In this document: positions 8,371 through 55,700 of the stretch, piece after piece | Layout of the letters: each line of letters starts with the position of its first letter | Numbering within the stretch: the stretch's first letter is position 1 | Source of the DNA: Girardia tigrina | Lineage: Eukaryota | Length of the DNA stretch: 64,000 nucleotides | NCBI GenBank assembly: GCA_001938485.1 | Contig: MQRK01238430.1 | Coordinates: 99,490 to 163,489 of the forward strand | Direction of reading: 5' to 3' | Position numbers and translations under genes: made by a program | The notes under the pieces: model-generated | The model's database searches: none | Told to the model about the DNA's origin: nothing | What the model saw: only the letters and a program-made list of their open reading frames with translations

Positions 8371-8640
8371 TTAAATCTTCATCGCCATCCTTTTATTCGC
8401 TAAGGTTTCCACTAAGGTTTTTAAGTATGTGTCCGGCACTTCACCCCCATGAACATGCATTGTAATCTTTCCATCGAAATCTATGAAATCTGTTAAGGAA
8501 CAAGTCTCATTCGGCCAAGGAATGTCAGATAAAGGAACAATGGTGTCAAGCAGAATATTCTCTTTCTTGATATTTATGGATGTTGGACCTTGTTCAACTG
8601 CAAAATTTGAAACACAGTTTTTTAAATCATTTAAGCCTCT
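8371..8640 (-). CDS. Probable terminal coding exon of an unidentified gene
   Basis: Stop-free ~90-codon stretch richer in GC than its flanks (GLNDLKNCVSNFAVEQGPTS...HVHGGEVPDTYLKTLVETLANKRMAMKI*), preceded by candidate AG acceptors; no transposon motif recognised. Confidence 0.4.
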   Translation of the reverse strand, partial: RGLNDLKNCVSNFAVEQGPTSINIKKENILLDTIVPLSDIPWPNETCSLTDFIDFDGKITMHVHGGEVPDTYLKTLVETLANKRMAMKI

Positions 8641-8819
8641 TGAGAAATAACTTAATCTTATAGTCAAATAATTTAATCCATTTAAAATCCTATTTTAATC
8701 CTTTAAAATATATCTTGAAAAATACCTTTTAAAATGATGAAATTAAAACAATAGAAAATTGCTTAGAAATCAATAAATTTAGCTTTTTAATACAAAAACT
8801 AAATTCCTTCAAATCCTTT

Positions 8820-18849: not shown

Positions 18850-19512
18850 GATGAGCATTGACAGTGAAAAAGTGTATTGTCACCTAGAATACATCAGTCC
18901 TGAAAGTTTCATGTCGCTAAGTGAACGGGAAGTGGGTGAATTTTTGATCGCAAGATTTGATGCATCCAGACAGACAAACAAATGAAACATAATAAAAGCT
19001 TGTAAAAATGAGTAATAGTATGATATTCTTTAAAGCAATCAGTGATACAGAGCCCTACATCACACTCTGCACATTCAAATCTCGATTCAGATATTTTCCT
19101 TTCCTTTCGAACAGATTGACTACAAACAATGCATTTACGTTGTTTTGCTCTCTTTCCAGTCTCTGATGGTACCAATGAAGGGAAATGCCGATCAATCAAT
19201 CTCTTGGGATGCTCTCCTGCATTTGTTCTTCGTTCCGTTCCCAGATCTTTAGCATGTTCCTGAATAATTTCTCGTATGAGTTGCAGTCTAAATCCTCGCA
19301 ATTGAGGTATTTTGCCAGTTTTTATCATATAAAGTATATATGCATTCAACGTAGAAATATCTAGAAGGTAGAAGAAAATTTTTTGGCGGGAATATTGTAG
19401 AATTAATTGAAAAGGGGATATATATGAATAAAAGTGAGAAACATTTAAAAATGTTTGCCGTCCTTTGAAAAAAATTGTAAAACGTATATATACGTCTGCT
19501 GCCTTTAAAGGG
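18850..19512 (-). mobile_element. Internally deleted piggyBac
   Basis: TTAA-CCC terminus at 19516-19510; KIFFYLLDISTLNAYILY and the Cys-rich C-terminal domain (KCIVC...ECAECDVGLC...CF.EYH). Confidence 0.85.
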
Positions 19513-19776
19513 TTAATAATACCTAAACCTAATTTCATAACACTAGATTTTAAATCTTTAAGTTAAAAGAAATCTGTGTTTGTAAATTATAGTAGATTAA
19601 TTTTTTATTATTTAAGAAATCATGCAGAAAAATTTTAAAAAGAGACAAACGATATTACTAAACACAATTATTTAAATCCAAGATTCCAATATTAAAATTT
19701 TATATTTCCCAGTTAACACCACTTTTTTGATTCAGCCTTTAGATCAAGATATGATCGCCACTTTATAAATTTATTA

Positions 19777-29084: not shown

Positions 29085-29361
29085 ATAGCTATCAAATACA
29101 AAATGGGTTATAAAAAAATTAAGTAATTATTAACTAATCTTAATTAACTTTGTTTTAAATAAAAAATAATAATTGATAAAATTTTTATAAGTATAAATTC
29201 TTAGTATTTTTTCATCAATGATTCTGCAGAATAACATAAATTAAAATATCGTCATAAATGATGAAAATGAAAAATTATTTATTTATTCACTCAAATCAAA
29301 GATTACGTAAAATAAATTAAAAAAAAATGTATCAAGGGAATCTTTTTTGAAAAATAAAGAT

Positions 29362-32300
29362 TCACCAACAGTTTGCTGGGGGATCAATTTCGAAAATAAT
29401 ACGTGAACTACAAGCTGCTCCAGCTCTCAATAGCAATACTCGAGCTATGACAGAAATGTGACAGAAGAGTAAATTAAAATAATTAAAATAATTATTACCT
29501 TCTTCATTGTAATTGTGAAAGTCTCCTGGGGAACTCCACTGAATAATAAATATGTAGCGTGGAGATCTAGAGCCTCTGAAGACTACAACATCAGAAGACC
29601 CAGCAATTATTAACCCGTTAAACTTTAGAACCAGTGGAAATAAATCTTTCACATATCCAACAAAATTAGTACAATTTTTAATATCATACATGTCAAGTTG
29701 GAAAAGACAAAAATCTAAAATCACCAACTGTTAAACAGGTTTAATTCAACTACAACAAATAATTAAGTTTTAATTGACAAAAATAAATTTATTTTATAAA
29801 AATTCAGGGACTGTGACTTAAAATAATAAAAATAAAATTAAAATTTTAAATTAGTGAGAAAATTATTAAATAAAGTATATTATATTAAATTATGGTTTAT
29901 CACTAGAGCAGAGATCAGATGTTTCTTTTGTAGTTGTATTAGGTTCAAAAATACAGCCAAATGCACGCAGAACCATGGAAATACAATCCATGGATGGTAT
30001 TTTCTTACAGGAAAGCCGACAAGATCTCGGAGACCGAAGAAATCCGAACCAGGCTATCGGAAGGCTGCTAGATACTCTTTAGTTCGGGTGAACCCTCTTA
30101 AGAGTATACAGCCAAATGTTCAATACCATTGAAAGATATGTGAGGCCTACAAATTACTCATAAACTGCGCCAGACTTAACATGGAATTAAAAAGTCAAAG
30201 CTCAGTATTAACAACATCAATATGAGGTTTACAACATTTATTAATATTACAAGCGCATTCACTATTTGACATCTCTCTTGATCAATTTTTTCTGAGTTCA
30301 AATTAATTATTTTCAATAAATGAAAATCTGTTAATAAAAATTATTAAATTATAAAGAATCTAATTGGTTAAAATTAAATTACATTAAAAAAATAAATAAT
30401 ACATTCAAAAATTATTTTAAATCTTTTTACTTTAAAATTAAATTAAGTTATTTTTAATTAGTAAGAATCAAAGAAAATATCAATCATCCATCTGTGTATG
30501 AGAGGCACAATCCGAATCAACATTCTACATGCACAATATCAATACACAATTCAAAACATTCCTCACACTCAGGGTCTTCAAAAATTAATAATAGAGATTT
30601 CTTTGAAGACAAAAATCTTTCTAATAAATGCTTATTTCATATGGAAATAGTAGTTATTGAATTAAAGCCTTAATAGTACATAAAAATAAGTTTTAACTTT
30701 TAAAAATTGTTGGGTTGTAGTTGGAATCATTATTTTTATTTATACACATACTTAGCTGTAGGTAATCTATTAATATCTATTTTAATCTATTGCATAAAAA
30801 AATTCCCAAAAATATTGAAAATATTCAAATATATGAAAAACCTTATATATTCGCAATCAGCTAAATTTTATTTGTTTCCGATTATTTTTTTTTGAATTTT
30901 TGAGCATAGTTTATGTCGTTATTTTGGTTCATAATCAAAAAATAAGTACAATTTTAAAAATGTATTTTATATCAAAATAACTATATTTAAACAAATATAA
31001 TTAAATATTTAATATTAAACAATATTTCTTTAATATTAAAAGTTCAGGCATTTAAATTATGCCTACACACCTCCCCTCCTAGATCGATAAAAGCTGGCTT
31101 GGGTTTGTCGAGTTAAATGTTTTCTTCTCTGTCGCGTCTAGATTGTGATAACCTTGCCGTTTTCTGAGCGGCGTACTACATCGAAAGGTCCTTCGTATAC
31201 TGCTTGAGAAGGACTCCTGAGTTCTTTTTTATCCCCACTTATTTGCATTTCAGAAGATCCTTGGGACGGAAAAATTTTATATCTCAGTGACTCTTAAATT
31301 CATTGGATGAATCTAGAATATCTACAACGGATTGATTAAAATTATGCAGAATAACGTCTCCCGTCAGGTGTGTAGGTACCTAGTAAAATCTGGGACGGTG
31401 AAAGCCCGGAGCTGTTTTATTGTGTTTCGAAGTCCCAGTAAAACTCGGGATAGTATTTTCAGCCATTCTTTTTCTACATCGATTGCTGTAGATCTTAATG
31501 GTTCTTTCAATGTCCAATGGAATCTTTCTTTCTTTCCATTGTTCTGTGGGTGGTGTGGGGTTGTGTGAGGATGTTCGATTCCGTACTGATTACATAAATC
31601 TTTGATATCTGAAGCAATGAATTGCCTCGCATTATCGGTGATGACGTGTTCTGGTGTGCCGAAACGAGATATCCATTCTTTTTCAATTACTTTGATTACT
31701 TCTTTAGCTCCGATTTCTCGCATTAGGAAAGCTTCTACACCGCCGGTGTCGCGATCTATTGTGGTAAGAAGGAATTTATTCCTCTATTTTCTCCTTCAAT
31801 GGTCCGACCAGATCGATTTGGACCACTCTAAGTTTTCCCAGATTGGTGATGATACCATGTGGAGTTCTGGTGTGTTTATAAATTTTATTTGCTTGACAGT
31901 TTTAACAGTTGCGAACCCATTTTCGAATCTCGGTCTTCATATGGTCTTTGCGCATGAGCGAGACACGATTAAGTGAAGAGCAATCTGATAACGTGTTTTT
32001 GCTAATTGAAAACTTTTACCAATACCCCGCTTTTGGGTAACAGTTAAGAAACTGTTACCATTAGCAATTTTTAAGTCACGTAACGTTTAGTCAATAATTT
32101 GATTGTTGCATTTGCTTCTGAATGGCATAAGCTGTGAAGTCTAGAAAACTCAGAGTATCTGTGACATTCGGGTAGAAAAATCCTTGGAGTTTTTGTTGAC
32201 TTGTCTACGAGTAAGCCCTCTTTTGTTTTGTCTATTACCAGAGAAGAATTAAAATGTTTTGAAATGATGTGTCTTTCTTTTGATCTTTAATTAGTTCTTG

Positions 32301-35300
32301 AAGGGTAATATGAAACAATTCTTTGATCTCTTCGTCCTCATATTGTTTGGAAAGAAAATCTGCCACTACGTTTTCTGAACCTTTAATATAATTTATTTCC
32401 ATATCGAACTGAGATAAGAATTGAATCCATCTCCATTGGCAATTTGAAGGACTTTTCATTGTTTGCAAGTAAAGCAGTGGTTTGTTGTCTGTTTGTACTC
32501 TAAATCCGCTGTCCTCCAAGTAGTGTTTAAAGTTTTTAACCGCAAGAACTATTGATAATAACTCGCGTTCAAAGGTAGAGTACCTTTTTCCGTGGCTGTC
32601 AGCTTCCTGAAAAAAACTGGTTTTATATTACCTTCAGGATTTTCTTGGTTGAGACTATTTCCCACTGCTGTTCCTGACGCATAGGAGCATAAAACAAAGA
32701 GGGTATGGAAATTTGGTAGGCACATTGTTTTGATGTTTCTAAGCTTTGATTTGGCTTCTTGGAAGGCTCTTTCGTGTTTTTCTTCTCAGTTGAACTTGGT
32801 CCTTTGTTTACTACTCTGAGATACTTGTTCGTGAAGTGGGGCTAAGGTTTCTGATAATTTCAACATTAACCACTGGTAGAATATAACGGCTCCAATGAAT
32901 CTTCGTAGAGCTTTGGTGGATCTCGGTGGTTCCATTGCATCAATATTCAACATATTAACACCGAGTCCAGATACATTGAACCACAAGAAATTGAAGTCTG
33001 ATTGATTCCATTTGCACTTGTTAGATTTGATTTTTAGTTTAGAATTCTTCAATCTAGTCATAACTTCTGTACATGTTTGCGATGGTCGACATCGTTTTTA
33101 GAGAATACGATGATATCGTCAATATACGCCATTGCATAAGTTTCACATCCTCGTAGTATTGAATCGATTGTTCGCTGGAACGTTTATAATGCATTTTTCA
33201 ATCCGAAAGGTATAAAATTGTATTCGTAGAGGCCAAACGGAGTGATAACGGCTGTTTTGTGCTTGTCAGCTTTGTCGATTGGGATGTGGTGATATGCTTT
33301 CTCTATATCGATAGTAGAGAAAAAATTGCATTTGGATATCTGATCAAAAATATCGGTTATTTTGGGAAGAGGGTACCGACACGGCCTGGTTTTTGCATTT
33401 AAAGCCCTGTAATCGTCGCAAGAGCCGAATGTATCGTCCTTCTTCTTGACTATCACTAACGGAGAAGACGAATCGCTGTTGCTTTCTCGTATAATACCAT
33501 CTTTGAGTAGCGCTTCAAACTGTTTCCTGATATCATGCATGGTGGTGTTTGCCAGACGACGAGCTCTTTGTGTCGATGGAGGACCCGAAGTTTCAATTGT
33601 TAATGAAGGTAAGTTGATCAGTTGGTGTACTTCTGTCGGGTTTCGAAACAATTTCCGGTTTTTGCAGTCTATCAGGAGATTAAAATGGGCCAAGAAATCG
33701 GAGCCCAAAATTGGTCGGCGAACATCAGCGGCTGTGAATCTCCATTGAAAATCTTCTTCCAATCGCGAGATATGGAATTGTAAGACCTTTTCACCGAATA
33801 TTTTGATTTTGGTGTTATTGGCAGATATTAATTCACAGCTCCTCGATGTGGAGTCCGGTTGGAAGAGATTTCGGGGTGCAACGCTGATATCAGCACCTGA
33901 ATCAATTAAAAAATCAAATAACCTGGCACTTGACCTCACCGGAACGGAAAATATTGCGTTGAGCTTCGGTTTTGATGTGAATGGTCAATGATAATATCAA
34001 GGGGCCTCGGTGTTCGACCTCACTGGGTCCCTGATTCTTTTCCCGAAGGATTTCCGGATATCCAAGAGCATGGTTTCTGGCATTTCTTTGCTAATCGACC
34101 AAATCTTTGGTTGTATAAACACAGCTGTGGTTTATCGGTTTGAAGTTTACTGAGGCGATTTTTTATCCAGTTTAATTCGATTTTCATCATTTCAATAGTT
34201 TCATTTGAATGCTGGATTTTCGGTTCTATTGCCGAAATTCGTCTTTCGTCAAGCAAGAAATGAGCATCGGCTTTAGTGCTGAGTTCTTCTAGATTGAGCG
34301 TTTCGTAATTTATTAAATGATGTCGGATAGAAACTGGAAGAGCAGCTAGGAACTGTTGTTTGAGGAATTCGCATTTATCAAGATTAACGTTGGGCTGGAT
34401 TACTCGATAGCATTTCTTTAGTTCTTCCAGTAATCGGGTAGGTTTAAGTTGATAGTCCATTCCATGTTGTGTAGCGCGAAGCAAGGCCTGAGCTGCTGAC
34501 ATTGAGTATTCCTTGAATAAAGCCTGTTTTAACTTCTCGTAAGGTGACCGCATAATGGATCCATGGCTGTCGTCAGTGTTTCGAGGATGTCAGGAGGCAG
34601 GCAGGTCAGGTTATGAAAATATTTGCCAGTTCGAAAGCGTTTTCAACTTGGGTGATCCAGTGTACTATATTCTTAAAATATGGTGGAATTATGACTTGGA
34701 TGTGGCTGGTCTCAGCCACGCTTCTGACACCAGTGTCGTTATTTTGGTTCAAAATCAAAAAATAAGTACAATTTTAAAAATGTATTTTATATCAAAATAA
34801 CTATATTTAAACAAATATAATTAAATATTTAATATTAAACAATATTTGTTTAATATTAAAAGTTTAGGTATTTAAATTATGCCTACAGTTTAAAACAAAC
34901 ATAATGCATTTGGACAAGAAATTTCATATCAGCTTTCTTTGTGTATGTAACATAATAATAAAAACTGTTAATAATGGAGTGCTTAAATGAATTTATATGT
35001 AATGCAGTTGTTTAAATAAATCTCAAAAACCGCGTTATTTGAGTTTTCTCTTCAGTGATAATGAAAAATAGCTATATTGTAGAAAATTTTAAATTGAAGC
35101 TTGGTTCAAACTGAAAAAAATAAAAATAGCTTTACTAATATAATTTTCTGGTTTGCTTATGTTTGCTTAGGATAATTTTTAAACAGTCATTCATATAATT
35201 CGTGATAAGGAGCTAATATGAATAAAGCAAAATGTTCTCTGTTGACTCAATGCAACTATATTAAGCCCTGTTTTTGAATCTTTTACTACTAAACATCATT

Positions 35301-38300
35301 TTGATATTGTAATAATGAATTTCTATTAACTCAAAATTGATTGCCAAGCCACAGATTGCAAATGTCTGCTATAAATAATAACGTCTTATACAACTAAAAG
35401 CTAATGGCATGGTCATCATGATGAAAATAAACGAATTTAAAAATTGGTGATATTCATTTATGTTGCGATCTCCACTCAGAGTTATAGTTTCTTTTGGAAA
35501 AAAGATACTGTTGATTTGGAAAAAATGGGTTCCCTTTTAAAACCTTTTTCTTTTAAATCAAGACCAGAGTTGAATATTAGAACATTGGAAACACAGATGA
35601 GTTTCGATTAGTTTTCTTTTGTAGTTCATCATAAAAGCAGCGAAAGACATTATGATAACTACCGTTTATCCAAAGAAATACAGTTCTACAGTTATTTTGT
35701 GCGTGAAAGTAATTTTTACCGATGAGAACATTAAAAAAAATTAAAGATTAGAAAACGATGAAGAGTTATCTAATTTCAAAGAAATACCAATATAAGTTAT
35801 TGATTTGACGGCGTCATTTTGATGGACTTGATAGAAAATACATTTTCTTTTGTTTTTGATTTAGATTCCAATAAATTTAGATGTTTAATCTCCTAAAAAA
35901 AACCCCACCTCCAAAATATGTCATGACTTTTAATTCATCGCAAGTTCTATTTTTGGTCATATATGCCCGATATATAGTTGCTACAATATGGTATTTAGAA
36001 TATTACAAATTAATTATTACTTATTTAAAATGTTATTGCAAAAACATTACTTTACACATTTTTTTTGGAAGACGAGTAAACTCGTCATATCCCTTTTTAT
36101 AGTACAACTTGCGAGCCGAGTTTACTCGCTTTTTTGTGCGAAGCGGTAAGGTACGGTAAACTTGTAAACAATGTGTTCTAGACAGGTGTAGGTGGTGCAT
36201 TAATTATTGTTTCCGGTATCCAATCTATCTACCTGCTGATAAAATGAGCTTGAGAAGAAACAAATAATAATAAGGGTAAAAATAAACAACTCGAAAATGC
36301 TCAACTACATAGTGTTCATCAAAGCATTTTAAAACGATATTTTGGGATAATTAATGTTAAATATAACTGAAAAAAAACAAAAAAATGATCAAAAGTCTTA
36401 AAAAATATTAAAATTTATATCATACTTAATGAACTTTTGCAAGGAGTACAAAGGGGCAAAATATACATTTCAACTCCTCCTAACCAGAATTGTTCTCGGA
36501 TTTCAGTGTGAGCTTGACAACATTTAAGAGCATTTTCTTTGTTATCAAAACTAAGGATCCCCAATCCCCAATGAGCAGGAAATTGACCTTCAATACATCG
36601 TATGGAAGTCTAGGAAAGCAAAAGGATTTTGTTTTAGAATAATTCTTCAATAAATGTTTTATCTAAATAACTTTGTATATACCATTTTAACGAATGTGTA
36701 CATAAAACTTTGGATTCTAATTAACAAATCTCAAATCAGAATGTAAATAAAGTCCAGCTTATTTTCTTTCAGTTTATTTCTTGTGAAAACAACATATTTA
36801 ATCAAAGACATTTAACGACTTGGAAAAATAAACTATTTTCGGGTGTCAAAATTTATGCACTTTATTCAGGGGAATCTGGGGAGATTTTTTCACTACCCCT
36901 TACAAATCAATTTTTTTCAGAAAATAGATAAATCTTGTTTCCTGTAGCCTTTAAATTAGTGGCCTCTTAATTATTAATGTAACATTATTGAACTTTTACG
37001 ATTTATCAATACCTCAGTGGAAAAGGATATTCTTAAAAAAATAACTTTTACATAATAATTGAATAAGTAAAATGTAGTTGGTTATGGTATTAACAGAGCG
37101 TGCACAATAACATGGCTGCGGCACTATAGAACTGGATGTGTATCCCTGGGTGGTAGCCGTAACTTAATGGTACGTTAGATAAAATATCATTGTCGACATC
37201 AAACTGGATTTTCACGCATTTTTGGATCTCCTTAAATTCATCTGTCCTTCTCACCTTTATAGTCTTTCTCTTCTTTGATGGCAATTTCATTCGACTCGGA
37301 TCCTCCGATCGGGACCATTGTCGTCCAGTAATAATTTCTCCGTGACTTGTTCACACAATGACAATACTTTGACCAATATAACACCGAATCGCATATCGTT
37401 TCGTCGAGAAATCAAAAATATTTGATGAGAGCATTGTAAATTTAAAAAATTTGTATTTTTAAGAAATAAATTTTTTTTAGATCGACCCAATTAAAAGACT
37501 TTACAAATCAATAACATTGATTCTTTTTTTACGGAATTCAATTTTTTAATATTCATCATAATATTTTGCCTTATCCCATACACATATTTTCATATTTCGA
37601 AAATTCGCTAATTTACAACAATTTAAATATATTTTTTGTCTTTTTTTATTAATCTTTTATTTTTATAATCTCATTTTTTTAATATCCAAAATGTCATTTA
37701 TTTTATTCATAAAATGCATATTAACAGCCCATATCATATTTTGAAAATAAGCTACAAATTTTCAGTAAACAACAGAATGAAGTTAATGAACAGATGAGAT
37801 TTTTGGAAATACAATTCGGTCTTTGTATTTATTGTCATATTTGTCACCCCATACGGTCGATTGATAAATCTCCGATTGATTTAGATTATATTGATATTAG
37901 GACGAATTCCAAAAAAGCGGATTCAATATTGTTAATACATTTTCCATTTCAATATTTGTCTCCCCTTGGAGGATTGAACACATTTATTTAAAACTTACCA
38001 CAAATCGAAACATTTACTAAGCACACTTAAATAGACATAAGAGGCTAAAACGGAATATATCTGTATATTTTTTGAAGTATTCGAATTTGAAAATATCAAT
38101 CTATAATTATGATTGAGAAAGAGCAATCTAAGAATACATGCACAAAATACATATAACTAACAAATGACATTTGAAAATATTCTTTTTGTAGTTCCCCTCT
38201 ATCTGAAGGCTCTAAAAGAATAATTTCAGAAATAACTGAAATTTAATACTGGAATATCATACGGTTGTCATGTACGGGATGAACTTAAATGACTTTATGT

Positions 38301-41300
38301 CCCATTTACTCAAAAATTAAACTTCTAGATACTAATTCCCATAATACAGGACGGAAATAGAATAAATTTAGGTACTGGATTGCAAGTCCTTATAATCTAA
38401 TATTATGGAGTAGCCTTTCAGTGTAGGCCGCTTTTGGGCATTGGAGTCCAGAGACAAAGTTTTATTCAACCTAGTTTCCCACGGACAATACGTGGAAGTA
38501 TACCCAACTGGCAAACACAGGAGACCCTAATTCCTTATAGTTATTTTGTTAAAAAAGGAATAAACTGATAAATAATTAAAAAGCGAATTTCTTCTTTCCA
38601 ATAAACAATATTTTACCAATTTTGCTTTTCTGCAAAATTCTCCATTTTCGAAAGCTTTAATAGTGCCTAATTCTAAGGTAATTTCAATCGATTTCAATCA
38701 AACAAACATTTCCACAGTTTTCTGTGTCGACCACCGATTCCGATTTGATCCATCCGCAAATGTTTGAGGCATTTACTGATATTTATTTGGAAAATAAGTA
38801 GGGTTTTATTTTTTATTTATGTACCACAAAATGTTAACAGAAAAAAATGTAACAAAACCTATTTATTTCCATGTAAAAATTACCTATTTTGTGATGTCGA
38901 AAAAACTATTTTTTTCTTTTAAAAAAATTATTTATCATTGTAAAAATTTTATGAAAGTTTTATACAGATATCAATAAAAAACAAGTTTATTTTTTATGGA
39001 AACAATGTAATTGTTTTACCAAGTTAAAAAATAAAAAATTTCAAATGTCGTCTTTGTTTTCTCAATAGATCAAATTAACATTCGAAAATGGCTTTGAACC
39101 CTGTTTATTTACAATTTGGAAGACAAAACGACACAGGTGCGGTATTTTAACCCCGTGCCAGGAGAAGCGATTCTGACAATCGCGACGTTGACGGATCGAC
39201 CCTGCGGTCCAACAAATTTTGTGTTGAACGAATCAAAAAATGAAACCGGGACGAATCAGGTCGAATCGAATTCGGTACGGCGAGCCTCTCATATAATCTA
39301 GAGAGCGATATTCCGCCGACGACGAACAGCAACGCGAGATACGATCCGATGTACAGCGCCGAGACCGGCGATGCCATAACAATATATACATATTACCTTC
39401 CGATGCGAATAAAGCCATATTTAAGTTATTGCTAGTTAAAATTAGCTATTTTAAATTATAAAACTAGTAAAATTGTTAAGGTTATGTTTAAAAAATATAA
39501 TAAAAGAATTACATAGATAAATTATATACCATACGGTTATATATAAATAGTATACCATACGGTAATCGGTTTATTTGCGGTAATAAAATCCGCAGTAGCT
39601 TTTTTGAATTTTTGGGAAAGATTATTTTCGGATTGGCGATTATTATTTATTAAAATTATTAAAAGATTATTATTTATAAAAATTATTAAAAGATTATTAT
39701 TTGAAAGGAAAAAGGATGTTTTTCCGACGTTCAAGATTTCACTTTCGGTCATTTCTGGGAATGAGGAACTATTTCGCCTCATTCCCCGGGATGGTTCCGA
39801 GTTTTGGAAGCCTGTAAGTAAAAGAAATATATTATATATAATGAATATGTAAAAAGAATTTCACTTACTGTTTAAAAAAAAGTTTGATAAAAAAATGAAA
39901 ATTTTGGGGAATATTCCCCTTTTTAATGAAAATGAATTTCGGCTTATCGACCGACAAATAGAAATTGGCCATTAGGCCATTAATCATTAAGCCCATTTGG
40001 GCAAAATGAAAATCTACGGCCTTAATGGCCTAATTAATTTATAGATAAGTTGATTTATGGACAAAGGCCTAATAATAATAATTATTATTATAAAAAAATT
40101 TTTTTCTAAATATTTTAATATAATATATGCACTTTATTCAGGGGAATCTGGGGAGATTTTTTCACCACCCCTTACAAATCAATATTTATCAGGAAATACC
40201 AAAAATTCATAAATTATGGCAAATAAAGAAAACAAATTTTAATTTATCAATTTGATTTGTAAAAACATTTGTGGATAATCGTAAATTTTTTTTAATGTCG
40301 AATTGATCAATTAGTTAATCTTTTAACTGATTCCTGTTGTCATGGAATTACATAATCATAAAGGGAGTGTGTGAAAAATCGTTTACCATATTTGTTACAA
40401 ACAAACAAAAGAAGTGAGTCAATACACCTTGATGTGGACAATGCCACCGATCGATCGCATGCTAAAATGCGACAACGCAATATTTTCTCGTCGATCAATA
40501 AATCTTACTATATTTCGGTGGCGTTCATATTTTCGAAGGGTCACCACCATACCCGCGCGCACCGTGATCCAGACGATGAGGGATCGGGGATCGGTCACTC
40601 GTGACNNNNNNNNNNNNNNNNNNNNNNNNNNNNNNNNNNNNNNNNNNNNNNNNNNNNNNNNNNNNNNNNNNNNNNNNNNNNNNNNNNNNNNNNNNNNNNN
40701 NNNNNNNNNNNNNNNNNNNNNNNNNNNNNNNNNNNNNNNNNNNNNNNNNNNNNNNNNNNNNNNNNNNNNNNNNNNNNNNNNNNNNNNNNNNNNNNNNNNN
40801 NNNNCTCGAAATTAGTCGGAACAGAAACACTTCCACAATCGTAAATCAGAGAACAATTTATTCTCTCGTTGTTGTTGACTTGGATTTGCAAATCGATTTA
40901 AATCTCTCAGAGAGAATCCGATTGTAACGAAATAACAACAAACGTGAATAAATTAGAGAATCGTAAAAAGTAAATCAAAATTCGTTTTTCAAAAAGATTT
41001 ATTATTTAGCAATGCAAGAAAGATAAGTTTTAAATTGGTGGTTAATGAAATCAGTTGTTTGGTACGGTAAAACAAATTCTGCTAATTATAATCATCATCG
41101 AAATTATTTCGTTAGATTCTTAAAATAAAGACCGAATGTTTTTTTAAAATGCGCATCTGAATTTTTCAGTTTTAAAAATTTTAGGGGTCGCAAATCCAAT
41201 TAAGAAATTTTTTCAAAATTAAAAATTAAAAAATTAAATTAAATATCACATTAAAAAAACTCTTAATTGGTTGCTACTGCTGATGCGATTTAATGAACAC

Positions 41301-43116
41301 TACACACCTATTATTTTTTATTCAGGGTATTAAGAACACCAATATGACTTAACATTTTTATTATTATAACAGGCTTGATTGTTATATATTTAAATTTTTA
41401 CTCAAAATTTATTGGATAAAAATTAAAATGATTATTATTTATTTAAGAAATATTAATTCAAATTATTTATTTAAAAATTGTAAATAAAATTAATAAACTT
41501 ATTTAAAATTTTACAATTATTTTAAATTAGAAATAAATTTAAATCTTACATATTTTCAGATAATAAAAATTAAAATATTAATCAGCCATCTGGGTAGGAG
41601 AGACACATTTCCAAATCAACATACAACATTCAAACAAAAAACATCAAACATTCAAAATATTCCTCACACAAGGCATTGACCAATTACAATAGGTCATATG
41701 TAGTCAAAATAAAATAATTTTTGGTAAAAATGTTTGAAAAAAATTTATTTTTTGATACAGGGGCTGACCATAATTGACGTTACGCGATTTTAACAGATTT
41801 CTAAACCCCCTTCCCTCTCGTCATATTTCGTTATAACAAGCCTGAACCCCCTTAAATATGATGTCACAAAGCTCTGACTCCCCTTTACATTTTCCTTTTG
41901 TTATCATATCTCATTTTTTTCACAAAACTAATATTAAACTTCTGTCTCATTATCAAATCAAAGGATTACTGCGACATATATCAACAATAGTTTGTAATAA
42001 TGAAGGCTGATCTTCCTCAATTCTGGGCTTACCAGGTTTGGCCCTGACGTTCATTGAGTTACAATTGACAGCAATTGAACACTGATTTTAGGGTAACGTG
42101 ATCTAATTAACAATGCTTACACAGATGTTGAAATTATCAATATTAATGCCTTATTTTCGGGAGACGAGTGAATTCGTCATACCTTTTTTTATAGTACAGT
42201 GCGGAAGCCGAGTTTACTCGTTTTCTTTCGCGAAGTGCTAAGGTGCGGCAAACTTGTAAATAATGGGCTCTAGACAGGTGTGACGGGGGGCGTTATATAA
42301 TGTCAGCGGTATCTAATCTATCTATCTGCCGATAAAATGAAGTTGAGACGCCTCGATTTGGCGGGAAAAGCTCCGACTACATAGGGTTAACATCACATTT
42401 ACATTTTTCCTATGCTCTGCAATAAAGCTCTTCCTCTCTTTTAGACCATGGTCTTTAATTCGTTTAGAAAGATGACAGGTAATCTCTCTAATGTAGGTGA
42501 CATCGCACTTATTACATTTATAGTCAAAAACAATATTAGAACAAAGAGTTAAAGGTGTAATAGATTTATTACTGGACCTATTTTGAATTTTATGAGATGA
42601 GAAATTATATAATTTTAGTTGCTTTTAACAATGCATTTTTAAAAGTTTTTAAATTCTTCAGATATTGTTGAATGTCAAAGTGACTACATATATTGTAAAT
42701 ATAATATAATTAAATAAATAAACCGATAATTCAAAATCGCAAATTGTCTTTCCAAATAAAAAATACTTTACCAGTTTTGCCATTCCGAAAAATTCCCCAT
42801 TCCCGTAAGCTTTAATGACGCCTAAATTTGTCATAATTGTGTTTCTAAACTTTTGAAAAGTGCTCAATGCATTATTATAGACAATCAAAACTAATGTTTG
42901 TTCGGTCGATCGACAAAGATTCTAAATGAGGAAGTTTCATTTGATTTTTCAACAGAAATTAGTAAATAATTTACACAGTTTTCTGTGTCGACCATCGGTT
43001 CCGATTTGGTCCATCCGCAAATGTTTGAGGCATTTACTGATATTTATTTGGAAACTAATTAGGGTTTTGTTCTTTATTTATGCATATGTATTACCTCCCG
43101 AGTCGAATAAAGCCAT
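29362..43116 (-). CDS. Tandem DUF1330-like (dimeric alpha-beta barrel) protein, 238 aa, 6 exons: 43116-43095, 43036-42975, 42921-42772, 36609-36426, 29714-29499, 29444-29362
   Basis: All five introns are GT-AG and phase-compatible (58, 53, 6162, 6711, 54 nt); 717 nt open frame. Two repeats match the DUF1330 pattern: IKAYGNGEFFG...CIEGQFP..WGLGILSFDNKENA and LVLKFNGLIIAGS...VFRG...YIFIIQWSS..DF..Y. Confidence 0.85.
30914..34887 (-). mobile_element. Complete compact Ty3/Gypsy provirus (3974 bp) in intron 4 of the DUF1330 gene
   Basis: 154-bp LTRs 30914-31067 and 34734-34887 (4 mismatches), 5-bp TSD GTTTA, PBS TGGTGTCAGAAG (tRNA-Leu type), PPT AGGAGGGGAGG; gag, FLIDSGAD protease, RT, RNaseH and integrase fragments. 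Confidence 0.97.
36066..36315. mobile_element. piggyBac-type terminal repeat, copy 1 (copy 2 at ~42157-42390)
   Basis: Shared GACGAGT.AA.TCGTC, GCCGAGTTTACTCG, CTAGACAGGTGT blocks; copy 2 ends ACATAGGG-TTAA. Confidence 0.6.
38617..39418 (-). pseudogene. Decayed duplicate of exons 1-3 of the DUF1330 gene
   Basis: Exon 1' 39418-39397 (MALFASE), exon 2' 38775-38714 with donor GT>GG, exon 3' 38672-38617 internally deleted (LGTIKAFENGEFCRKAKL); ~570-bp insertion in intron 1'. Confidence 0.85.
40370..40991 (+). mobile_element. LTR-like repeat with central gap
   Basis: Purine run AAAGGGAG then TGTGAAAAATCG ... CGTTTTTCA inverted ends; GC-richer interior. Confidence 0.4.
41759..41890 (+). mobile_element. 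PIF/Harbinger-type MITE end
   Basis: AGGGGCTGACCATAATTGACGTTACGC...CCCCC is typical of Harbinger MITE termini. Confidence 0.45.
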
Positions 43117-49700: not shown

Positions 49701-52700
49701 ATGAATCCAAAAATGAGTCTGTATCAAACACAGTAAATATTAGTATCTCTAACTAAATATCTTAAGCGTTTTAAGTATATTTTTAAAATATATTTATAAA
49801 ATATTTGACAAATATTCTGTGTTCGATACAGACTCCTTTTTGATTTCATTGTGGTATTTTATAAATGTTTTATCAATGGACTATCCACCTGATGATGTTA
49901 TGATAAGAATGAAACATGTCGTGAATTGTGAAATAATAAATGGTTACTTAAAATATATATTTATATGTATATTAGACCAATAACTCCATCTTCCTTTTCC
50001 AGTACCCACAGGGAAATCCCGCTATAAGTGACCGTTTCTTGTGGATTGGTTCGGGAAAGAGGGGAAAATTAATTAACAAAACACTATAACTAATTAGATT
50101 TGTTAAAATAAATACACATATGTATTGATAATTTAATGCCCTTTCAATCAATAAAAAGATTCTCAAGATCTCAGTTTTAATTGGCTATCCTTTATTTATA
50201 CAACATTCAAATTAACAAATGGTTCTAAAATATTTTTCGCCTAACATTCTTAAAAAGATATTTTATTGTTCTAAATCCACTTGTAAGCGGCGTTTTAAAG
50301 ATTGGATATTGCTTTCATCAAAATCGAGTATTCTGTTATACCATATGATATATCATTATAGATTTGTTTATTACCGACACAACCAAAATATTTCTGCTCG
50401 TTACAGATGAAACAAAAAATATCAATGGTTTTATCAATGACCTATTTTTTACGAATAAGTACAGCAAGACTCCCTTTGCCAAGAAAAATAAGATTTTTAT
50501 GTTTTAAATTCGACTTTAATTCTTGAAATTTAGAAGCATAGATAAATCACCTTTCATTTCTTGACTCAGTTTCTTCTTTATATGATAGGTTTCAAGCCTT
50601 TTAAAATTCGATCTACCGTACTTGTACTTATATTTATTTGTAATTTTTCTAAATTTGACTTTTAAATCTGATAATCTAAGTAAGCAATTCTCGTCAACCT
50701 GAGAAATTACTATTTCTTTAAGTTCCATCTTTAATTTAAATTGGAAATTTCGTTTTTTCTTACTTCCAACAATTCTCCAGTAGCCTAAACTGTTCAACAA
50801 TACGATATACTGAGTTGTAACTTTAGTCATACATCACAGAAATAGACTTCAACAGCATTATAATAATCTATTTATTGCGTGTTTTTCATTCTCGTCAGAA
50901 ATCTTCTTCTGTTTTTTTCTGAGATCGATGATTTGAAATGATTGATTTTGAAATTATATATAAATATATATAAAAATCAAGAACGCTATTAAAATAAAAT
51001 TTTATTGTCGCAATATATTTCGGTGGATTTTCCACCATCTTCAGGCTGCATTAACAACAATTTCACTGTTTTATATACAGCAAATTGATGATTATGCAAA
51101 CATCTTGTGTAATAACTAATTAAATATTTTCAACAAATTGGAAGAGCGACTTGTTTGAACATTAACCCTACAAATACCATGTGGGAAATAGTTACATATT
51201 ATACCATGCATGGACAAATATGTCCATAAAAGTAATCAAATAAAAAGAAGCAAAAAAATTTGTTTTAAATAACAAGTCCTAATTAATTTTGAAGTATATT
51301 CAATCTGATTTGTCCACAATTATCACAAAAAATCTCGATTTTCGAATGTTTCTTACAAACAAAGAAATCACAGCTACAACATTTTGAATTAATTCTGCTG
51401 GCTTTATGTTTTGTTTCATAATCGACTGATGTGTCATAACATATCTTGCATCTTACGCGTAATACTTGTTTACTACGAGAACTCGATTCTGATATTTATA
51501 TCCATTGTGTCATTAATGATGATGATGATGATGGTAATGTGGAGGATGAAGATGAATGAACGATACAATCAATAGAAAACACAATATCTCGGTGTAGATT
51601 TGCCTTTTGTCGTCTACTTGCGTTTCGCAAAACCAACGAATGAGCTAACTCTCTTAGAAACAATTTTCTCTTATTCGGATTTTTGACTTGCCAGTCAGGA
51701 AAACTTTCGATAAATGTGTATGCATTTACACCTACTATATCCAATAATGTATAGAAAAGTGAAACAGGCCATCTAAATGTTCCTCTTTTAGTACTGTAAT
51801 GGCGGGTAATTTTATCGATTGTGTCAACACCCCCTTTAGTCATATTATAGAACGAGTTGATTTCCGGTTTACGTTTATCGCCATCAAACGTTCCAATAGA
51901 CTGATGATGAGTTGATATGAATAATACTGATTTTCGAGGCTTTGCGTTGTATGAAAGGAGTGTTTTTGGTGCTGAAGTAGAGATCGCTTTTGAAAATAAG
52001 AATACAGATGAGTACAGCTCTGTTCCGCTAGTATTTTTTATAATATTAGGAAGATGCTTTCTGTTAGATTGAATAGTTCCGACCATTGTTAGTTTAAAAT
52101 TGTGCCATAGAATATCTGCTAAATCAATAGATGAATAATAACGGTCCATCGTTATATTACGTGAAGATCCTTTGATCACCTTAACCAGTCTAATAACTAT
52201 GTCTATAGGTTTATTGGATTGTAAATCGGATTTGCCAGCATATGGCTCCATTGCTAAAACATAACGATGCTTAGCGTCTGTTATCATTCGAATAAGTATA
52301 CCGTATTTACCGGGCTTATCCTTCATAAAAATCTTGAATGGGCACCTTCCACGAAATAGTGAGAGCATCTCATCTATAGTCGTACATTCGTAAGGCTTGA
52401 AAAGTCTTGAAAATGAAGATGCAATTGATTCAAACAGATTTCTTATGGGAGCAAATTTATCAGTCTTTCTTCTTTCTTGTCTGGTACTCTTTTCATCGAA
52501 TCGCAAATGCTTTATTATTTGAATAAACCTATTTCTTGACATCGCGCCCCTGTAAAATGGTCTACCATTTAGTTGTGACCATAAATCTGTAATCGATGGA
52601 GTATTATCATTATTGCTTCCCATCATGTATAATAGTCCCATAAAGGTGAGCAGATCGATTTTATCAATCTTATCATTTTCTTCTATTATATGTTCATTCG

Positions 52701-55700
52701 TATTTTTGATGGTTATATCAAGGACATCCGTTGACATGAATTTACGGAAAGCATCTTCTGCATTTATAGCCTTACCGTCAGGTGTTATGCCCATATGATC
52801 TTTTATTACATCTTGAATATATCTTTTTTGATTTCTAAACTGCTTCTTGAATTAAACCTTACCAGTTTTTGACACTATTTGTTTGTTTGTCTCTTCTAAT
52901 TCTTCGTCTTCTCCTACTTCATCTTCATCGTTCAATTGATACTCTTTCTCATTGTCTTCAACTTCACTTGTCTCATCTTCTTCTCCTGATAAAATTAAAT
53001 CATTTTCTCCCGCAATATCAATTCTAAAATAAATAAAATAAATCAGTGAAATAAAATAAAATCAATATAAAAAGATAATATATAATATATAAATTATATT
53101 TAATATATAAATCAATATCAATGAAATAAAATAAAATCAATAAAATAAAACACAATAAATCAGTTAAAAAACTAATTAAAACCCCTTGCAAGATAAATAT
53201 GGACAAGAATCGGATCAGCTAAATGCACTTTCAAGTCCGGGACCGCAATAAAATTACACTGCTTAAAGCATTTTCAAAGATTTTCATTTAGTTTTAAAAT
53301 TTTAAGATTTTCATAAGTATGAACATTTTTGTCCATGCACAGTATTTGTAGGGTTAATGGACGGATTAAGTGATTTAATCAATAATGCTTCACAAGTAAC
53401 TCTTTCCCAAAAATTTTTTAAATTACTGGATTCATGAATTTAAAATTAACGGATTCAGGAGCATGGACGATTGGGTAATGGGAGTAATATTGCTGGACAT
53501 ATGAAGGGTTGTAAATCGGAGGTGAAAACAACTAATTTTAAAATATTGTACAGTAATTTTAAAAATTATTGGGAAAGTTACTTGTGAAATATTATTGATT
53601 AAATCACTTAATCCGTCCATTAATGTCCAAACAAGTCTCTCTTCCAATTTGTTGAAAATATTTAATTAGTTATTACGCAAGATGTTTGCATTTTCATCAA
53701 TCTTTATATATATAAGTAAGCGAAATTTTTGTTAATTCAGCCTGAAGATGGTGGAAAATCCACCGAAATATATTGCGACAATAAAATTTGATTTTAATGG
53801 CGTTCTTGATTTTAATGAAAATTTACCATTATTTTTTAAATTTCTTATTAATAAATATATACAAAGTTCTTTTTCAAATATAATCGTAACTTTTTTACAA
53901 ATAAATCTTTAGAATTTATAAAAATCGATAGAATAACATTTGGAAACACTACTCCAAATGCATCTGCTATAAAATTGATGGATTTGTCCGCACCGGATAA
54001 AAGGCCAGTGTATTTGACCGAAAATTCTCTCAGCAAATTGATCAGTTTTATCAAAGGAACAAGATATTATTCGATTGTTTTGGAATTCGATGTGAACTTT
54101 CGTCTGACCGGTACCGAGATCTCTGTGCTTTGTAAACATAAAAAGTTAGTTTATTGATTTAAGTGTACTTTTATGTGATTTATTGAATGAATGAGTTTTT
54201 CATTTTTTTACACGAAGAACTTTATCTTTTTTATTTATATTATTTTTTACGTGATCTTTGTGAATAGTTTAAGAAATTCGTATAAATTTTCAAATTTCAA
54301 AAATATTTAAAAATATATCATAAAATATATCAATTAAAAAATAAGCATTTTAAAATTAGAATAAAATAAGTTTGTTAGAACGCAAGATTAATATATACAA
54401 TACTTTATTCAAATCAAATTCAAAATTGTGTGCAACACTCAATTACTTAAATTATTATTTAAATTAATATTTAGTTAAATTAGTTTTGAGAGATTTCAGA
54501 AAATTCTAGAACCGATTGTTAATATTGATTTTTGTAAATTAAGTATTAAGGTAAATTATAATAATGAAAATTCCTCAATAACTTCATTATCCAACACGAA
54601 AATATGGAAGGTAACATATATGACATTAAAGTGAAGTTTGGAAAATGACTACAGACGAAGACGGACTAAAATAAGCATTGAAATAGATAGACACTCAGAA
54701 CAAAAAATCTGTAGATGCATATTTATCGGAAATTACTTGGATATGTGGTGCACAAACTTGCTACGATATAGGATACATATGAATGTAGGATACATAAACA
54801 CAAAACCAAGATGACAACCAATAAAATTTGAGCGAGACATATAAAAGGAATATTGAAAGATGTTATTGTTGCTAAAATTGATAACAAGTATCGTGGTTCC
54901 AAACATTAAAACAACATATTTTGTATAACATATTAACAAGTGTCATGCTGGTAGTAAAAAAGTTCATAATTATCTCAAAAATGATTTTGATAAGGATAAT
55001 ATGCGAGTGATAGTAAAAGAAATAGTAGTACTATTATCGTACAATGTGTAGATTGGGAAATGTGAATGGATACCACTACATATTGGCCATAATCGACCAA
55101 TTAGAAGATGTATTAGTAAGAACACAGTGATAAATCAAGATAAAAAATCGCACTAAACGTCCTACTAGATTGATGGATATGGAAATTTAGATCACCAAAA
55201 GAAGTTCACATGGACAGAGGGAAAAATTTTAAGCATCGCTGTTGAAAGATTCATTCAAAAAATTCGAAGTAGAAATAGTTTCCTCTAGTCCTAATCATCA
55301 CAATACAAATTAAATCATGGAAAGGTAGTTTAGAACAATTGAAAATGTGTCCTGTAATCGCATTTACAAAAGAACTTTAATTATATTATTTATAAATAAT
55401 AAGTGATACAGAAATAATAGTGTTGCATTTATATAAATATAATATTTACACTGATAATAGAAAATAAGAAAAATACTTCAAGTAATAACAAAATAAATTG
55501 AAAACAATTTTTGCATAGATTAGTTGTTCAAATATTTAAAGTTTCATCATTTTATTTTTTGTTTATTTGTTCAGTTAATAAATAACTCTCGTCTTTTTAT
55601 ATTTAATAAATTCTAGACTAAAGCATCAAATTTCGATAAATGAATAATAATTTATTATTTTTTATCATTTTCTGGTAATTCGAGAAGACTATTTTCAATA

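Follow-up and report, generated by a model that had tools for sequence, protein, structure and literature searches.

A spliced flatworm gene for two fused DUF1330-like domains in Girardia tigrina

The stretch of DNA analysed here (the window) comprises 64,000 nucleotides (nt) of Girardia tigrina, taken from contig MQRK01238430.1 of assembly GCA_001938485.1 (positions 99,490 to 163,489, forward strand), and all positions given below are counted from its first letter. On the minus strand of the window, between positions 43116 and 29362, lies a six-exon gene that encodes a protein of 238 amino acids (aa). The protein represents DUF1330 (PF07045) in a remodelled, double-domain form, and the family to which it belongs is undescribed in the literature that was searched, yet it is already labelled in databases.

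Gene structure and splicing

When the six minus-strand exons are joined at their splice sites, a reading of 717 nt with one terminal stop is obtained, and the five introns, which measure 58, 53, 6162, 6711 and 54 nt in order, all run from GT to AG. This reproduces the six-exon animal gene proposed in a preliminary description that had been made from the letters alone. The parts of the gene, from its 5' end, are as follows.

43095..43116, minus strand: exon 1, coding part, with the ATG at 43116; joined to exon 2 by copy-specific letters in contigs of runs X1 and X3
42975..43036, minus strand: exon 2, aa 8-28, a low-confidence N-terminal arm, from the splice reading, the relatives and the model confidence of relative P0004
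42772..42921, minus strand: exon 3, aa 29-78, first half of DUF1330-like domain 1; linked to exon 4 by a loose contig end of run X7
36426..36609, minus strand: exon 4, aa 79-140, second half of domain 1, with the conserved C83, C108 and C132, from contigs and relatives
29499..29714, minus strand: exon 5, aa 140-212, most of DUF1330-like domain 2, from contigs; PF07045 at E 0.058, under the cut-off
29362..29444, minus strand: exon 6, aa 212-238 and the stop, last helix and strand of domain 2, with the conserved C223 and R226, from contigs and relatives
29262..29361, minus strand: 3' untranslated region under spliced-contig cover, which reaches 29262 in X1 and 29268 in X3; the contigs do not fix its true end

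These exons form one real, spliced and co-transcribed gene. Words of the 3' exons are contained in 13 of the 16 sequencing runs listed, the label of RNA being a guess for every run, and contigs of four runs (X1, X3, X5 and X7, which come from three studies, X1 and X3 being one sample) were aligned to positions 29200-40500. One contig per run covers exons 6, 5 and 4. The 6711-nt intron 4 (29715-36425) is skipped exactly in all four, and the 54-nt intron 5 (29445-29498) is skipped exactly in X1, X3 and X5 and with a one-base offset in X7. The X1 and X3 contigs run on into sequence like exon 2 and exon 1 with intron 1 removed, and the seven letters at this join match the upstream exon 1 (at 43097), not its copy in a decayed partial duplicate of exons 1-3 that lies in intron 3. 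Similarly, the loose end of X7 at 36610 equals exon 3 at 42773 in 29 of 30 letters, while the duplicate differs at 7. Hence, four of the five exon junctions are seen in RNA-type contigs, and the claim of transcription across both introns of about 6 kb is borne out. The junction of exons 2 and 3 is unseen in the contigs because exons 1-3 lie outside the aligned stretch; it is placed by homology only, from the intron position in relatives.

A chimera of two tandem genes, one providing the 5' exons and the other the 3' exons, was suggested by the duplicate and by an N gap in intron 3, and it was rejected since the letters of the upstream copy of exons 1 and 3 are those that join exons 4-6. The five GT..AG introns, the spliced contigs from three studies, and the transposons of animal type within and near the gene place it in an animal genome and not in a contaminant; the surrounding DNA is AT-rich, of animal type, and holds many transposon remnants.

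The gene had also been called invisible among the open reading frames of the window. This is not entirely correct, since exons 5 and 6 together with intron 5 make up one 122-aa open frame (29362-29730). Intron 5 is in frame and free of stops, and its retention would add 18 aa. An insertion at this site is present in several fluke gene models, and among the contigs listed the spliced form alone was seen.

The flatworm family

By sequence comparison, the 238-aa protein is not a singleton but a member of a flatworm family that spans tapeworms and flukes. Exon 4, searched against 1.84 billion representatives, gave 12 matches, one of which was a spurious repeat protein and the named ones of which came from a tapeworm and liver flukes. 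A profile search returned 23 matches among 926 candidates, and every one of the 13 with a species name is a tapeworm or a fluke. Single-exon searches of word indexes yielded 15 and 3 candidates with no relative among them. Its identity to 14 full-length relatives ranges from 37 to 50%, and the protein matches their profile at E 5e-95. For example, the tapeworm and fluke proteins W6U3K6 (Echinococcus granulosus EGR_09455), A0A183S8K3 (Schistocephalus solidus) and CSKR_110695 (Clonorchis sinensis) share its family, architecture and intron positions at 40-45% identity. A rapidly built tree places the flukes in one group and the tapeworms in another, and the Girardia protein stands outside both, near ENA/Logan sequences. 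Taken with the base composition and the short introns, this position suggests a free-living flatworm such as a planarian.

The relatives are filed in databases as ‘DUF1330 domain-containing’, ‘expressed conserved’ or ‘hypothetical’, the first of these being already the UniRef label of two of them, and an ESM Atlas cluster of 102 members, mostly from flatworms, bears PF07045 on 43%. No paper on the family was found in the literature covered, which left subscription papers and the tables of parasitic-worm comparative genomics outside, and a search for the term DUF1330 in 12 supplements of PMC10092323 gave no match.

Breaks or insertions in the gene models of flukes and tapeworms fall at three of the planarian intron sites, namely at 28|29 (P0044, P0017 and P0019) for intron 2, at 139|140 (P0002 and P0055) for intron 4, and at 211|212 (P0016, P0019, P0020, P0039 and P0041) for intron 5. 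Because these breaks coincide with the sites, they suggest indirectly that introns 2, 4 and 5 are older than the split of the planarian, fluke and tapeworm lineages.

In taeniid tapeworms there are two paralogues, which are close neighbours by locus tag (EGR_09453/09455 and TSMEX_006277/006279; records P0031, P0045, P0046, P0049 and P0023), and P0023 looks like a gene model that fuses both. Two records labelled as bacterial, P0047 (Glycocaulis) and P0048 (Nitriliruptoraceae), were rejected as evidence of gene transfer. They are 97-99% identical to taeniid members and lie on contigs of 562 and 901 nt; they are likely contamination, which would fake a transfer signal.

Relationship of the two halves to DUF1330

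Comparison of profiles shows that both halves of the protein are distant homologues of DUF1330, each a variant rather than a typical member. Against an alignment of 15 bacterial DUF1330 rows gathered from plasmids and genomes, HHalign gave the two halves probabilities of 96.0% and 96.3% (E 4e-9 and 2e-9, scores 51 and 53). The maximum scores of column-shuffled controls were 17 and 15 in 30 shuffles of each half; these controls used an 18-row bacterial alignment that included three wrong-frame rows. In agreement, the earlier suggestion of two DUF1330-like repeats is upheld by these values along with the fold matches to the DUF1330 structures 2fiu (Atu0297) and 3lo3 (Colwellia). Bacterial DUF1330 proteins align nearly end to end with each half, and their three structural glycine columns and the aromatic residue after strand 3 are kept in both. 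The PF07045 cut-off is passed by two of 12 relatives, P0007 (28.4 bits) and P0009 (30.8 bits), and 19 of 28 alignment members match the model at E up to 0.1. None of seven sequences matched NCBIfam.

There are also differences from the bacterial proteins. The flatworm protein has two fused domains, five introns, and its own set of conserved cysteines and polar residues; its halves share 11.5% identity, and each has 15-16% identity with the bacterial rows. The bacterial rows carry a polar signature, S-x-E-Y...R, which is a feature of this 15-row sample and not a curated definition (Tyr in 15, Ser in 14 and Arg in 14 of 15). S-x-E-Y is absent from both flatworm halves, in which the Tyr column is a gap in 11 of 11 first halves and Glu in 11 of 13 second halves, and the signature and the conserved Arg columns are out of register.

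The preliminary description had taken DUF1330 to be wholly uncharacterised, which is overstated. Going by the title of the report, CmaL (PSPTO4723) of Pseudomonas syringae is a DUF1330 member required for L-allo-isoleucine (Worley et al. 2013, J Bacteriol 195:287; cited in PMC4228168 and PMC7385143). This title was the sole functional statement on DUF1330 that the literature searches returned; the role it names is in bacterial secondary metabolism, and nothing links the flatworm protein to this reaction.

Predicted fold

The fold was modelled on relatives. The AlphaFold model of P0004, which is 50% identical to the Girardia protein, has two ferredoxin-like repeats with a predicted local distance difference test (pLDDT) of 73.6 and a predicted template modelling score (pTM) of 0.74; its residues 1-40 have a pLDDT below 50. 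Over its whole length this model matches 2pgc (Z 14.4, root-mean-square deviation (rmsd) 4.3, 190 residues aligned). The second half of P0004 matches 2fiu (Z 7.6, rmsd 2.2, 93 aligned) and 3lo3 (Z 7.2, rmsd 2.0, 91 aligned). For a relative comprising the first half only, VIA likewise put 2fiu (Z 8.2, rmsd 3.2, 89 aligned) and 3lo3 (Z 7.9, rmsd 3.1) at the top. When the PDB was searched with a bacterial DUF1330 protein, 2fiu was the single match; with the family profile as the query, a sequence search of the PDB brought up nothing beyond a repeat artefact and a weakly scoring globin. Among viral folds, an ABM protein of a giant virus was the one match, and a generic one.

From the P0004 model, the two halves are predicted to close into a single-chain alpha+beta barrel, as the idea of a fused barrel had proposed. 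Several tandem ferredoxin-like barrels match the whole chain as two domains, with Z of 8-14 over about 170-197 residues; these include 2pgc, the anthrone oxidase-like 5f9p, FN1347 (3mcs), coproheme decarboxylase and chlorite dismutase, DyP, and sulfur oxygenase reductase. They differ in that identity is 3-10% and rmsd about 4, and the flatworm family is without a conserved His for heme. The tandem barrels and the flatworm protein are likely to be independent fusions within one superfamily.

There are a number of points that weigh against reading the protein as a double DUF1330 barrel with a retained activity. Exon 5, when the exons are scored singly, reaches 14.2 bits against a Pfam cut-off of 23 for PF07045 (E 0.058), while exons 3 and 4 scored in the same way give no match. 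A direct profile match of half against half was not found (HHalign 0.3%). For the first half, the Z values are tied within 1 of those of unrelated ferredoxin-like folds, Foldseek has no match that reaches E 0.001 and ranks RRM domains higher than 2fiu, and pLDDT exceeds 60 in one of five models. The models are those of the relatives P0004 and P0035 and not of the 238-aa protein itself, and a common fold shows no function. The lost bacterial Tyr could equally mean lost catalysis.

Conserved residues and proposed function

The residues conserved among the flatworm proteins are distributed over both domains. The near-invariant polar and aromatic set comprises Q36, D100, C108, R116 and E117 in domain 1, and Q145, D147, Y149, K152, Y160, Q198, W199, C223 and R226 in domain 2. 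Out of the 12 cysteines of the protein, C83 is conserved in 12, C108 in 14, C132 in 13 and C223 in 14 of 14 relatives. Across 15 rows there is no conserved His column, the best reaching at most 7 of 15. The motif N-x-S-N-x-[TC]-x-W (aa 9-16, exon 2) is present in the 238-aa protein and eight of 14 relatives, and the Trp of the motif is kept in 14 of 15 rows; the rest of this arm is variable. No signal-peptide-like or hydrophobic stretch was found at the N-terminus of the 238-aa protein.

It is about an even call that the protein is a cytosolic, cofactor-free, single-chain barrel of pseudo-dimeric form which acts as a small-molecule enzyme or binder, with neither heme nor CxxC chemistry. The proposal of a small-molecule pocket or activity draws on the dimeric alpha+beta barrel superfamily and on CmaL as a precedent for chemistry of this kind. 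Each half would be a ferredoxin-like domain, and the two sheets would pack as a pseudo-dimer that mirrors the barrel made from two chains by single-domain DUF1330 proteins. Fusion may have let the halves diverge to their present mutual identity, the bacterial S-x-E-Y may have been replaced by the near-invariant polar residues specific to the family, and these would line one or two pockets that act without a heme or a CxxC site. By the time of the last ancestor that the sampled lineages share, the gene would already have been fused and have carried introns.

The main rival to this small-molecule barrel is a non-catalytic, degenerate barrel that serves as a structural or protein-binding part of a flatworm structure such as sperm, cilia or tegument. 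This is a fair distance behind in probability, though a serious possibility: the bacterial S-x-E-Y, with its Tyr in every bacterial row, is missing in both halves; the long stems of 3.3-3.6 changes per site leading to each half, followed by strong conservation among flatworms, fit a change of role; and the conserved N-terminal motif sits in a low-confidence arm. What speaks for a pocket instead is the large number of near-invariant polar and aromatic residues in both domains, as would be expected of its lining.

Two further functions are improbable. One is a heme or metal protein resembling coproheme decarboxylase, chlorite dismutase, DyP peroxidase or sulfur oxygenase reductase: such folds fill many rows of the whole-model fold search (Z 8-11.5) and the four conserved cysteines could in principle bind metal, but no His column is conserved, whereas the heme enzymes among them rely on a proximal His, the identities are as low as stated above, and the fit per domain is closer to the cofactor-less DUF1330 structures (rmsd 2.0-2.2). 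An RNA-binding protein with an RRM-like fold, slightly less probable still, would account for the U1A-type RRMs that Foldseek puts first for the first half (E about 0.01) and for the automatic, spliceosome-related name of the ESM Atlas cluster. However, VIA puts DUF1330 structures first, the profile match is to DUF1330, and the automatic name probably derives from a fused gene model, as do the RRM and helicase labels on the over-long models P0023 and P0044.

The CxxC pairs of the preliminary description are present in the sequence, though its Cys-rich ends with such pairs are not supported as a feature. A thiol-redox or zinc protein could be imagined from the two tetrapeptides, CNLC and CTPC, and the 12 cysteines; but CNLC straddles the junction of exons 2 and 3, where the sequence is variable, and because C28, C31 and C135 are each present in none of 14 relatives the pairs are no motif, so that such chemistry is largely refuted as the mechanism of the family and is most unlikely.

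Evolutionary origin and significance

An ancient bacterial origin of the gene is possible, and its transfer into the flatworm stem lineage stands at about even odds. The more specific account, in which a pre-fused two-domain DUF1330 gene crossed from bacteria to the flatworm stem, gained introns, rebuilt its pocket, and was kept by free-living worms, flukes and tapeworms as an enzyme found in flatworms only, is tentative and on the unlikely side. In the domain tree (97 columns, 15 bacterial rows), each half emerges on its long stem from an unresolved bacterial star. The next-nearest ESM Atlas clusters among those listed are bacterial DUF1330 proteins of 207 and 223 aa, that is, of two-domain length, with scores of 0.89 and 0.88, and these are leads only. 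Searches of GTDB genomes (with P0004 as the query), JGI metagenomes and IMG/VR gave no relative, pattern scans being insensitive at this distance.

Vertical descent from an old eukaryotic DUF1330 gene, which would have been lost or changed beyond recognition in other animals, requires no transfer and has an equal chance of being true. It would suit the 15-16% identity of the halves to bacterial DUF1330 and the domain tree, in which no bacterial donor group stands out. The flatworm profile matched none of 301 genomes of one bacterial phylum, six of which carry a DUF1330 gene; because it missed these six, it could equally miss distant members in animals and protists. Against vertical descent, no non-flatworm eukaryote is named among the 12 exon-4 and 23 profile matches (10 of the latter are without a name), and the two bacterial Atlas clusters come next among those listed.

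Many metabolic genes have been lost from tapeworms and flukes, yet this one persists in them, with 13 named parasite proteins at about 40% identity to the planarian version. A conserved barrel of bacterial type that is apparently restricted to flatworms is a lead for lineage-specific biochemistry and a candidate for an old gene transfer. If a pre-fused gene was indeed transferred and gave rise to a flatworm-only enzyme, it would represent an ancient transfer at the level of a phylum, without a counterpart in the host, and a possible parasite-selective target. The weight of this is limited in that some members are already labelled automatically in databases and that the transfer is unproven.

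Elements inside the introns and around the gene

The two long introns contain the following larger elements, both of which are absent from the preliminary description.

38617..39418, minus strand: decayed partial duplicate of exons 1-3, in intron 3 (39397-39418, 38714-38775 and 38617-38672; 3 of 22, 3 of 62 and 12 of 50 differences from the live exons)
30914..34887, minus strand: decayed long terminal repeat (LTR) retroelement, in intron 4 (154-nt repeats with 4 mismatches between them, ends of the form TG..CA, a target duplication of 5 nt, and remnants of reverse transcriptase and integrase)

The duplicate is without about 100 nt of exon 3 and without the exon 2 donor, its first intron is longer by about 560 nt, and it stops early in a straight reading. 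Some formal splice forms of it are open, but the first strand and helix are deleted in them. Among the contig joints listed, none comes from its exon 3, a further nine joints being unlisted. This duplicate could mislead gene predictors. The LTR retroelement accounts for 3974 of the 6711 nt of intron 4.

Shorter repeats are scattered in the same region. The copies at 30370-30568 and 41474-41669 are 71% identical and hold a short, Cys-rich broken frame; the first of them has many deep contigs with varied loose ends, which indicates a multi-copy element. Likewise, the dispersed repeats at 36059-36255/42151-42348 and 28562-28740/37255-37436 in the long introns share 76-80% identity and are likely transposon ends; contigs lie very deep on some of them.

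Elsewhere in the window, a 451-aa open frame on the minus strand (51496-52851) has a full-length match to DDE_Tnp_1_7, a piggyBac-like transposase (E 5e-66), and a related C-terminal remnant of such a transposase lies at 18909-19562. A 107-aa open frame at 8371-8694 (minus strand), which has the look of a coding exon and no Pfam match, is possibly part of a neighbouring gene.

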